This document shows positions 25,246-49,462 of a stretch of DNA of 49,462 nt, piece by piece. The notes beneath the pieces were generated by a model, which was not told where the DNA came from, ran no database searches, and worked only from the letters and a program-made list of their open reading frames with translations. Origin of the DNA: Pseudomonadota bacterium (lineage in GTDB: Bacteria; Pseudomonadota; Alphaproteobacteria; RF32; CAG-239). The stretch is from the NCBI GenBank assembly GCA_918234285.1, contig CAKJXZ020000022.1, forward strand, positions 1 through 49,462, written 5' to 3'. Within the stretch, counting starts at the first letter, position 1; every line of letters starts with the position of its first letter. Made by a program: the position numbers and the translations under genes.

Positions 25246-25321
25246 GGGCGCTTAGCTCAGCTGGAAGAGCATCTCGTTTACACCGAGAGGGTCGGGAGTT
25301 CGAACCTCTCAGCGCCCACCA
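25246..25321 (+). tRNA. tRNA-Val (TAC)
   Basis: GGGCGCTTAGCTCAG...TCTCG-TT-TAC-AC-CGAGA...GGGAGTTCGAACCTCTC-AGCGCCC-A-CCA. Confidence 0.97.
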
Positions 25322-25564
25322 TTACAAAAAACGCCTTTGGGCGTTTTTTTTATTTTCTGCACCTAACAGAGGTTTGAACTCCCGGAACGGGAGTTTGACC
25401 ACAAGCGAAAGGCGGGCGGGAGAACGCCGGTCGCGAAGCGATGAGCGCAGGGGCGGACGAAGTGAAACGAAGGCCAGCCTCTCAGCGCCCACCATTACAA
25501 AAAACGCCTTTGGGCGTTTTTTTTATTTTCTGCACCTAACAGAGGTTTGAACTCCCGGAACGGG
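25305..25564 (+). repeat. tRNA-Val-linked repeat: identical 87-bp direct repeats (25305-25391, 25478-25564), period 173 bp
   Basis: Each copy = last 17 nt of the tRNA + terminator + antisense T-arm (agaggtttgaactcccg) + cggg. Confidence 0.92.
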
Positions 25565-25569
25565 CTTTT

Positions 25570-25670
25570 GCAATATAAACAACCTCAAAATGTTGTTTGT
25601 ATTGCAAGAGGCGCAGTTTTCTTAATAAGCATGGAAAGCGACAGCGACCGCGGCGAATTTAGAAAACAAG
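25570..25670 (+). repeat. ~101-nt structured module inserted in the second tRNA-Val repeat unit
   Basis: Near-identical to 49221-49322; 14-bp hairpin plus gttttct/agaaaac stem. Confidence 0.88.
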
Positions 25671-25700
25671 CCGACCACAAGCGAAAGGCTGTTTGCTAAC

Positions 25701-44172: not shown

Positions 44173-44248
44173 GAGTTCGTAGCTCAGTCGGTAGAGCATT
44201 TGACTTTTAATCAAAGGGTCGCGGGTTCGAATCCCACCGAGCTCACCA
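44173..44248 (+). tRNA. tRNA-Lys (TTT)
   Basis: GAGTTCGTAGCTCAG...TTTGA-CT-TTT-AA-TCAAA...GCGGGTTCGAATCCCAC-CGAGCTC-A-CCA. Confidence 0.96.
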
Positions 44249-44429
44249 ACAAAAGGAGGCCGCCTTGCGCGGTCTTTTTTTTGTTGGTTTGAGGTCGCGG
44301 ATGAGAACCCGCGAAATCGGGTTCGACGCCAAGCGAAAGGCAGACGATAGTATGCCGGTCGCCACAGGCGATGAGCGCAGAAAGTCGTGAGGAGCACCGC
44401 GACGAAGGACAATCCCACCGAGCTCACCA
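44230..44429 (+). repeat. tRNA-Lys-linked repeat element, period 181 bp
   Basis: 19-nt tRNA 3' end aatcccaccgagctcacca at 44230-44248 and 44411-44429, enclosing terminator, antisense T-arm and a core shared with the Val and Thr loci. Confidence 0.92.
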
Positions 44430-44433
44430 TTAT

Positions 44434-44476
44434 AAAATAAGGCTTTCAGCGATTTTGTTGAAAGCCTTATTTTTTT
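44434..44476 (+). terminator. Inverted repeat after the duplicated tRNA-Lys end
   Basis: aaaataaggctttcagc-gatttt-gttgaaagccttatttt. Confidence 0.7.
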
Positions 44477-44677
44477 ATCTGTATACCTATTATACACTAA
44501 ATTATGAAAGTGGCTAATTTATTATCTCCGGCTTATATTAAATCGTTTGCATCCGGGACGGTGCTACACTGGTGCTACATTTTAGACGGTTTATATAAAA
44601 TAACGCTTGATTTTGTCAAAAATATATGTTATGAACGCAAACGTTATCTTTTATTATTTACAAAACCATTTTTGCTT

Positions 44678-49069: not shown

Positions 49070-49145
<76 letters not shown>

Positions 49146-49462
49146 ATAAAAGAACTCCTCCTTGCGAGGAGTTTTTTTGTTGGTATCGGGAGGGGAGAAG
49201 AACGCCCGAGGAGGGCGCTCGCAAATAAAAACAACCTCAAAATGTTGTTTTTATTGCAAGAGGCGCAGTTTTCTTAATAAGCAAGGAAAGCGACAGCGAC
49301 CGCGGCGAATTTAGAAAACAAGTGACCGAAGCGAAGTTAGCGATTGCCGAATAAAATGAAGGCAGAGCTTACGGAGCAAGAACGACAAGGAGGCACCGGC
49401 AGACGAAAGTATGCCGGTCAGCATTGGCTGACAGCCGACGCAGGTAGCAAGCGTAGCGCCGC
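49146..49462 (+). repeat. tRNA-Thr-linked element (runs off the window end)
   Basis: Terminator, antisense T-arm gaacgcccga (49200-49209), 102-nt module (49221-49322) shared with the Val locus, ggcagacgaaagtatgccggtc shared with the Lys locus. Confidence 0.88.

Follow-up and report, generated by a model that had tools for sequence, protein, structure and literature searches.

A divergent and unusually rich set of RtT-type repeats behind the tRNA genes of an uncultured alphaproteobacterium

Results and discussion

In this study, the tRNA gene tails were analysed in a 49,462-nt stretch of DNA, the window, which is contig CAKJXZ020000022.1 (C22) of assembly GCA_918234285.1, from an alphaproteobacterium of lineage CAG-239. 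The genome comprises 2.0 Mb (43% G+C) in 71 contigs and has 45 tRNA genes. An ORF of housekeeping size beside tRNA-Val had relatives solely in metagenome-assembled genomes, labelled as uncultured Alphaproteobacteria of the rumen and of animal or human gut. Judged from sequence comparison, the repeated units behind tRNA-Val, tRNA-Lys and tRNA-Thr are a divergent branch of the known RtT, or tRNA-linked repeat, family (RF00391) of Escherichia coli, not a new kind of element, and the customisation of each tail to its host tRNA is a property of that family and no novelty of this genome. The explanation towards which we lean, with moderate confidence, is that the units of these divergent RtT-type repeats encode a structured RNA on the tRNA strand, which would be made by read-through and processing at a CCA end, and that recombination drives their turnover.

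Layout of the tails and matching to the host tRNA

Four tRNA genes were placed in the window by ARAGORN, and three of them have a readable 3′ flank. At all three, the tail lies directly 3′ of the tRNA and on the same strand. Reading of the three tails showed one order of parts after the CCA: a terminator, consisting of an intrinsic hairpin and a T run; an imperfect antisense copy of the T-arm and acceptor; a short loop; a sense restart of the T-stem; and a purine-rich core. The Val and Lys units close with an exact copy of the tRNA 3′ end, 17 and 19 nt long, respectively, which runs from the end of the T-loop to the CCA. The unit period is 173 bp for Val, 181 bp for Lys and 176 bp for Thr, the last taken from the continuation of the array on contig C30. 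A first-pass annotation of this DNA, made from the letters and a list of open reading frames (ORFs), had described such a three-tail layout; all its parts were found in the sequence, the periods of 173 and 181 bp were confirmed, and the core motifs that it gave as common to the tails, as well as the loop CTTGC in both the Lys and Thr terminators, are present. Its description of a T-loop insert also holds, as the core occupies the T-loop position of a second, sense copy of the 3′ part of the tRNA. With the terminator between them, the tRNA 3′ copy and the antisense copy make up one long imperfect palindrome centred on the terminator loop. Neither gene remnants nor ORFs were found within the units (130–185 bp).

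The reverse complement of the last 32 nt of each tRNA was compared with the region 25–140 nt 3′ of each tRNA, for the 43 tRNAs that have 100 nt or more of sequence behind them and with a match score of at least 24. An antisense copy of the own tRNA was detected behind 19 of the 43. The cognate tRNA was the best of the 44–45 candidates in 17 of these 19 cases, the exceptions being Asn (rank 2) and Gly-ccc (rank 4); therefore, the antisense segment tracks its host tRNA. At orthologous loci, the antisense copy follows the species-specific T-stem variants of tRNA-Trp, -His and -Ser. Both results uphold the earlier proposal of one modular family with flanks that track the host tRNA. Extra same-strand copies of the last 16 nt (up to 2 mismatches) were observed within a few hundred bases downstream of 12 of the 45 tRNAs, including two arrays that continue on other contigs.

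A covariance model, R1, was built from a MAFFT alignment of 16 units of this clade. In its own genome R1 gave 18 matches (E < 0.01), all in tRNA tails or in contig ends that continue such arrays. Matches were found in all 36 other genomes sampled from the same genus (1–21 per genome, roughly 380 in the genus altogether), in 2 of 24 genomes taken from other families in the class, both weak, and in 2 of 150 further genomes sampled evenly across the phylum, where all three matches lay behind a tRNA on the same strand.

From the same-genus genomes, 60 loci with 85 units (82 distinct) were collected. Of these units, 72 lie behind a same-strand tRNA, namely 50 at 23–46 nt after the CCA, 19 at 190–267 nt and 3 at 367–393 nt, corresponding to first, second and third units. 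Among the other 13, nine have less than 300 nt of upstream sequence, three follow a displaced tRNA 3′-end fragment behind foreign AT-rich DNA, and one is unclear. Thirteen different tRNA species are occupied among the relatives. Across 49 first units, complementarity of the antisense copy to the tRNA was observed in 76–100% at positions 47–56 and 59–63, in 33–59% along the acceptor strand and in just 18–37% at positions 57–58, which face the exit of the core. At the core exit, 52 of 81 units have TT or GA as the two linker bases, and 7 have TC, the exact complement.

Relation to the RtT repeats of E. coli

In the E. coli K-12 chromosome, R1 had five matches at E ≤ 1, all five at RF00391 loci and none elsewhere: one in the tyrT-tyrV spacer (52.3 bits, E = 7e-10), one at proK and three at serX. 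RF00391 itself matches 18 places in K-12. Five of them were read directly and lie behind or between tyrT and tyrV, behind proK and behind serX; the others we take to belong to the lysT-valT, valU-lysV and argQ-serV clusters. The antisense copies of proK, serX and tyrTV each score best against their own tRNA, the proK array stops just past the sense restart, and behind tyrV, the CCA that closes the first 3′ copy is also the annotated 3′ end of the small RNA RttR. Because R1 matches at E. coli RF00391 loci and the same plan is found there, the tails are a remote branch of the described family.

In the opposite direction, the Lys unit was matched by RF00391 over its full length, with the consensus parts in the same order, at 17.4 bits against a cut-off of 45. 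Genome-wide, three full-length sub-threshold matches were obtained (16.7, 17.4 and 22.3 bits), all directly behind tRNAs. As the RF00391 model was built on enterobacterial sequences, the low score speaks to divergence, and the units are thus filed as remote members, not as RF00391 hits. At the gathering threshold, Rfam detected the four tRNAs and nothing more in the window, and the Rfam matches there at E ≤ 10 were noise apart from RtT.

The first-pass annotation had named a match of the core to a described Rfam family with known function as one of the findings that would overturn it. This holds in part, as the family proved to be a known one, but to our knowledge tRNA-linked repeats have no accepted function or origin. 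A search of the accessible literature found no paper explaining them. The repeats, first seen behind tyrT, have reportedly been known in E. coli sequence since Egan and Landy in 1978. In PMC3318445, Bosl and Kersten (1991) are cited for the RttR RNA. A mobilome-sequencing preprint (10.1101/2024.07.17.603846) describes exonuclease-resistant coverage raised over E. coli rttR-tpr-tyrVT under several stresses and leaves the cause open; excised repeat circles or RNA-DNA hybrids could produce it.

Fold and covariation

Four helices were tested: P1, between the antisense copy and the 3′ copy; P2, between the antisense T-stem and the sense restart; and P3 and P4, the two hairpins of the core. On the 16-unit MAFFT alignment, 92.1% of cells were paired versus 76.0% in shuffles (reached by 0 of 500), and when the partners were slid by 1–3 columns, 27–43% of cells were paired. 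Both-sided changes were observed at 14 of 22 pairs of this alignment. On the 82 distinct units, 94.2% of cells were paired; this alignment was made to R1 and is tilted in its favour. Since the tRNA does not serve as a template for P3 and P4, their compensatory changes are independent evidence of the fold.

Of the 82 units, 64 have a GNRA loop on P3, and the P2 loop is conserved, purine-rich and GNRA-like. G.U pairs exceeded A.C pairs by 16 to 4 in the MAFFT alignment, by 64 to 16 in all units and by 43 to 10 with one unit per locus, indicating that the tRNA-sense strand is the folding strand. Based on this asymmetry and on the GNRA loops, the folding species is most likely RNA. Single-sequence minimum free energy folds of eight units disagreed, with z-scores from −0.2 to −3.4, and covariation was relied on for this reason. 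The motifs GAUGAG and CGAAA were also considered as parts of a hammerhead; by eye, U4 and A14 are missing and extra bases stand in the junction, and this reading was rejected, with no ribozyme family among the Rfam matches up to E 10.

The three arrays of the window

All features described here are on the plus strand. The first tail is hosted by tRNA-Val(tac) at 25246–25321, identified, as were the other two hosts, by ARAGORN and the Rfam tRNA model. Its terminator, T1, occupies 25322–25358, with the hairpin at 25326–25349 followed by the T run, according to a terminator scan and the sequence. The antisense copy of the acceptor 3′ strand and T-arm, placed by sequence, tRNA-complement alignment and R1 alignment, follows at 25359–25384 and gives the 5′ strands of P1 and P2. 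After a 3-nt loop (25385–25387) comes the sense restart (25388–25398), comprising the 5′ strand of the T-stem and the first T-loop bases, which forms the 3′ strand of P2; both were placed by sequence and R1 alignment. The A-type core, purine-rich in its 3′ part, extends over 25399–25477 as delimited by R1 alignment and covariation, and the R1 alignment places in it the P3 hairpin at 25411–25428, whose loop in this copy is 10 nt long on the stem GGCG/CGCC, and the P4 hairpin at 25431–25441. The unit ends at 25478–25494, where the final 17 nt of tRNA-Val are repeated exactly and form the 3′ strand of P1.

A second Val unit begins at 25495–25564 with a terminator copy (hairpin 25499–25522), an antisense copy, a loop and the first restart bases. 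It is interrupted at 25565 by a repeat of a second family, the B type (25565–25672; nhmmer match 25576–25675), and is truncated after a remnant of the A-core start at 25673–25689, as seen by comparison with 25397–25413. The sequence caagcgaaaggc at 25678–25689 is part of this core remnant and not a separate element.

The tRNA-Lys(ttt) gene (44173–44248) is followed by one complete 181-bp unit at 44249–44429 (R1, 123 bits; RF00391, the full-length match given above). Its parts are T1 (44249–44282), the antisense copy (44283–44312), a loop (44313–44317) and the sense restart (44318–44326), all from the R1 alignment, and then the core (44327–44410, with P3 at 44339–44356 and P4 at 44359–44371) and the 19-nt copy of the tRNA end (44411–44429). 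Next to the unit lies the native tRNA-Lys terminator, T2, at 44430–44478.

Behind tRNA-Thr(cgt) (49070–49145), the tail takes up 49146–49462 and consists of T1, an antisense copy (49180–49209), an altered sense restart (49214–49222), a B-type repeat (nhmmer match 49227–49333) and a C-type core cut by the end of the window. The start of contig C30 (positions 1–300) holds the missing 3′ copy and two more 176-bp units, with two more 3′ copies.

The B-type repeat is approximately 105 nt long and was found by nhmmer in 25 copies in the genome. It consists of an AT-rich hairpin and a conserved purine-rich part that pairs with itself, and it had no match in Rfam. The copies of the window were delimited at 25565–25675 and 49223–49335; others are on contigs C30, C58, C3, C36, C63, C14 and elsewhere. 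B-type copies often replace or interrupt the core of tRNA tails. For at least five, the 260 nt upstream contain neither a tRNA nor a tRNA end, and these tRNA-free copies are flanked by direct repeats of other, non-tRNA sequence together with a short antisense piece. At tRNA-Arg(ccg), two B-type copies were observed upstream of the gene (contig C30:5618–5842) and three more in its tail.

Twenty sequencing runs hold the region of the window. One of them, a metatranscriptome with a word share of 0.05, is recorded as RNA; it is available as contigs only, without strand, transcript ends or copy-number joints. One 151-nt contig from this RNA library covers 25545–25687, the B repeat within the second Val unit, with two differences, and is a weak hint at most. 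The DNA contigs of those runs break at the tRNA and the repeats, and tail parts lacking cover by RNA contigs are not evidence of silence.

Gain, loss and exchange of units

In three congeneric species (loci L173, L175 and L176), tRNA-Lys(ttt) is followed directly by a terminator 91–96% identical to 44430–44478. In the window, 181 bp stand between the tRNA and that terminator, flanked by the 19-nt repeat and carrying a different terminator. The empty and filled states of this site indicate that units come and go as blocks; since the terminator of the Lys unit differs from the native one, the unit was not made by duplicating local sequence. At tRNA-Val, one unit was observed in locus L002 and two identical units in L005, with the same final terminator after both. 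In four other species tRNA-Val is followed by a terminator alone, and in others B-type or other cores stand there. A tRNA-Val site without a unit and with the L002 terminator gave 0 matches in a search of genome contigs.

The distal ends of 46 arrays vary. In 24, the array ends with a further T1 copy, after which anything from nothing up to the whole antisense copy and sense restart is present; the other 22 end otherwise. Cores approximately 85% alike were found behind different tRNAs (Ser-gga and Lys-ctt; Ser-tga and Pro-tgg), and the likeness between tails of different tRNAs ends at the T-loop halves GTTCGA and AATC. The tRNA-Phe array contains a chimeric unit with a Phe-type antisense copy, the 3′ end of tRNA-Ala(cgc) and an Ala-like terminator.

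Several further observations were made at single loci. The tRNA-Phe array (contig C58:18200–22455, locus L099) has two AT-rich ORFs of 331 and 428 amino acids between its units, neither of which matched a Pfam or PADLOC family. The unit behind tRNA-His in L122 matches the T-arm variant of L151, from another species, and not the adjacent tRNA-His, a pattern that suggests replacement of either the 3′ part of the tRNA or the unit. In the window a gene follows tRNA-Lys; its orthologue in L170 (from genome G216 of the genus) has in front of it just the 3′ 45 nt of tRNA-Lys and two units, so that the intact tRNA-Lys must stand elsewhere, probably past an insertion. The Gly-ccc and Ser-gga arrays (contigs C49, near 21900, and C28, near 46300) each border at their end on another short repeat, which starts with tattgagattaccacg and includes gtaatgac.

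Proposed explanation and alternatives

With the units taken as divergent RtT-type repeats that encode a structured RNA, each would yield an RNA of approximately 130–150 nt on the tRNA strand. Its 5′ part, complementary to tRNA positions 47–72, would pair with the restarted T-stem to form P2, capped by the purine-rich, GNRA-like loop, and the same 5′ part would also pair with the copied 3′ strand of the T-stem and the acceptor strand ending in CCA to form P1. The core, with P3 and its GNRA loop and with P4, would leave at the would-be T-loop, producing a multi-helix junction. Transcription would start from the tRNA promoter and reach the unit by read-through, and, as in the case of E. coli RttR, the enzymes that process tRNAs might trim the tRNA-like 3′ end in CCA. 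Units may be multiplied and removed when the repeated tRNA ends and terminators recombine with one another, and cores may pass between tails via recombination at homologous cores or at the near-universal T-loop halves. The flanks could stay matched through a chain of events: the 3′ copy would remain identical to the tRNA by recombining with it, and pairing, through selection or hairpin-templated correction, would then carry the antisense copy and the sense restart along.

Several points weigh against this explanation. The sole signal for the units in an RNA library is the 151-nt contig at 25545–25687, and such libraries can hold DNA. An intrinsic terminator starts every unit, so that transcription requires read-through. 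The antisense copy extends its complementarity to the CCA itself in 10 of the 49 first units, and the 3′ end would then be buried. The arrival of a first unit at a tRNA, as at the Lys site, is not explained by recombination alone. The alignment of the 85 units was fitted to R1 and favours the structure, the RF00391 model stays below its cut-off here (16.7–22.3 versus 45 bits), and even in E. coli the RNA is without an assigned function.

The main rival is a mini-element mobilised in trans at a folded site. According to it, the unit is a non-autonomous mobile module whose folded single-stranded DNA or RNA mimics the T-arm and acceptor duplex and is inserted at the T-loop or 3′ end by a recombinase acting in trans, for example one of the tRNA-targeting tyrosine integrases of the genome, in a manner likened to integron attC and CTX phage attP sites. 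We regard this as unlikely. It would account for the clean empty and filled tRNA-Lys sites, with the 19-nt repeat from T-loop to CCA and a non-native terminator brought along, for cores that differ behind tRNA-Val from species to species and are missing at some sites, and for near-identical cores behind different tRNAs with likeness ending at the T-loop halves. Gene-bearing inserts in the tRNA-Phe array also fit, as do the 12 tyrosine recombinase (PF00589) matches in the genome, several of which adjoin tRNAs. However, at least 13 tRNA species are occupied in relatives, far above the normal range of one integrase; array ends are not fixed, with the 24 arrays ending in a T1 copy differing in the length of antisense copy; the Lys unit had no match, and nothing unit-like was found, in phage or plasmid collections; and a DNA recombination site leaves the GNRA loops and conserved junction bases unexplained. 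Deletion between direct repeats would also yield empty sites.

No match to Y1/HUH (PF01797) or IS110 (PF01548) was found in the genome, and the one reverse transcriptase match, on contig C27, is unlinked to the tails. None of the 12 tyrosine recombinase matches is on contig C22, in agreement with the earlier statement that the window has no integrase. The view of the tails as a new non-autonomous, T-loop-targeted element survives in part: discrete blocks are gained and lost, as seen at tRNA-Lys, but the element is not of a new kind, being a branch of RtT, no dedicated enzyme of the Y1/HUH or IS110 type was found, the ends are not fixed, and the GNRA loops and the G.U excess point to a folded RNA and not to the end of a DNA transposon. 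Two related candidates likewise lacked support, namely a miniature inverted-repeat transposable element or other derivative of IS200-IS605 or IS110, considering the lack of PF01797 and PF01548 matches and the varying array ends, and an element borne by its own integrase, considering the ORF-less units and the lack of a PF00589 match on C22. The hallmark of an integrative element, a direct repeat together with an empty site, is nevertheless present at tRNA-Lys.

Another explanation, to which we give rather little credence, is that the units have no function and result from slippage and from template switching driven by hairpins at tRNA terminators, with fold-back copying and drifting tandem arrays. 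In this view, the terminator palindrome would be extended into the tRNA end, and fold-back there would make antisense and then sense copies. The imperfect palindrome formed about the terminator loop, the fractional copy numbers and the variable array ends are consistent with this, and local templating would make the flanks track the tRNA without a guide. On the other hand, the core has no template in the tRNA, but its two hairpins are kept by compensatory changes, with a GNRA loop, throughout the genus and it is recognisable in E. coli; the terminator of the tRNA-Lys unit is unrelated to the native one; and between 1 and 21 units have been kept in every one of the 36 sampled genomes of the genus.

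More speculatively, and with considerable doubt, the unit could be a self-matching programmable module, in which the antisense copy acts as a splint that aligns the T-arm halves and the core can be copied to any tRNA tail, the RNA ending in CCA serving as a decoy or sensor. A host recombinase, a ligase or a template switch may recognise the near-universal halves GTTCGA and AATC, and the released RNA may be aimed at enzymes or toxins acting on the acceptor and T-arm of that tRNA. If this were true, tRNA-linked repeats would be a widespread tRNA-specific RNA system and not junk.

That the units are attL/attR scars of former integrase-borne islands or prophages in tRNA genes is highly improbable: direct repeats of tRNA 3′ ends are the classical mark of integration and a 7.6-kb island with two tyrosine recombinase matches is present at tRNA-Ser(cga) (contig C30:74670–82577), but this island displaced an older tail and did not create it (the tRNA end at C30:74864 still has the terminator, antisense copy and B repeat), the units hold no gene remnants, and a uniform size with a conserved fold at 19 tRNAs is not expected from random decay.

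Significance

A genus of uncultured rumen and gut Alphaproteobacteria carries repeats behind about four in ten of its tRNA genes, and these form a divergent and unusually rich set within a family that is known but poorly understood. The copies are numerous enough to define a fold with four covarying helices, GNRA loops and strand-specific folding, and the empty, single and tandem states of one site were caught. What was a vague oddity becomes a testable RNA family, and a model that bridges to E. coli allows experiments to be done there. Two warnings for annotation follow: duplicated tRNA ends need not mean prophage scars, and distant members are missed by the Rfam RtT model.

Comparison with known systems

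Integrative elements that target tRNA genes use tyrosine integrases that cross over in the T-loop or the 3′ end of the gene. The units share with them the direct repeat from T-loop to CCA, an insert that restores the tRNA and brings its own terminator, and the occurrence of empty and filled sites; they differ in being approximately 180 bp long without an integrase or any other gene, in occupying many tRNA species and in their variable distal ends. With integron attC and CTX phage attP sites, a tentative analogy, they have in common an imperfect hairpin that rebuilds a target-like duplex with a stretch looped out at the crossover; they lack the context of an integron integrase, and their GNRA loops argue for RNA.

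The repetitive extragenic palindromic sequences and bacterial interspersed mosaic elements (REP/BIME) of enterobacteria and the Neisseria intergenic mosaic elements (NIME) are mosaic intergenic repeats. Like them, the repeats described here are short, structured and gene-less and nest in one another, and the B type also occurs away from tRNAs. In contrast, the A- and C-type units are strictly linked to tRNAs and have tRNA-derived flanks, and the genome has no RAYT/HUH gene.

The closest likeness in plan is to the RtT repeats of E. coli K-12, which have a period of 178 bp behind tyrT/tyrV and also lie behind proK and serX and, presumably, at the lysT-valT cluster and argQ-serV. Both lie directly behind a tRNA on its strand, in tandem arrays with fractional copies that are customised to each tRNA. 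Both have an antisense T-arm copy with an altered complement of the T-loop, often GAUGAGAAC, and a sense restart that ends in GUUCGA. The core is purine-rich in both and contains a hairpin of the form GCC-loop-GGC, both close with the tRNA end copied up to the CCA, and their covariance models match reciprocally. The unit-starting intrinsic terminator present in every unit here is absent from the tyrT units, whereas proK and serX have one. The repeats are far more abundant here than in E. coli, behind 19 of 43 tRNAs in a 2.0-Mb genome, and this genome has alternative cores, namely the C type with AAGGAGG and the B repeat.

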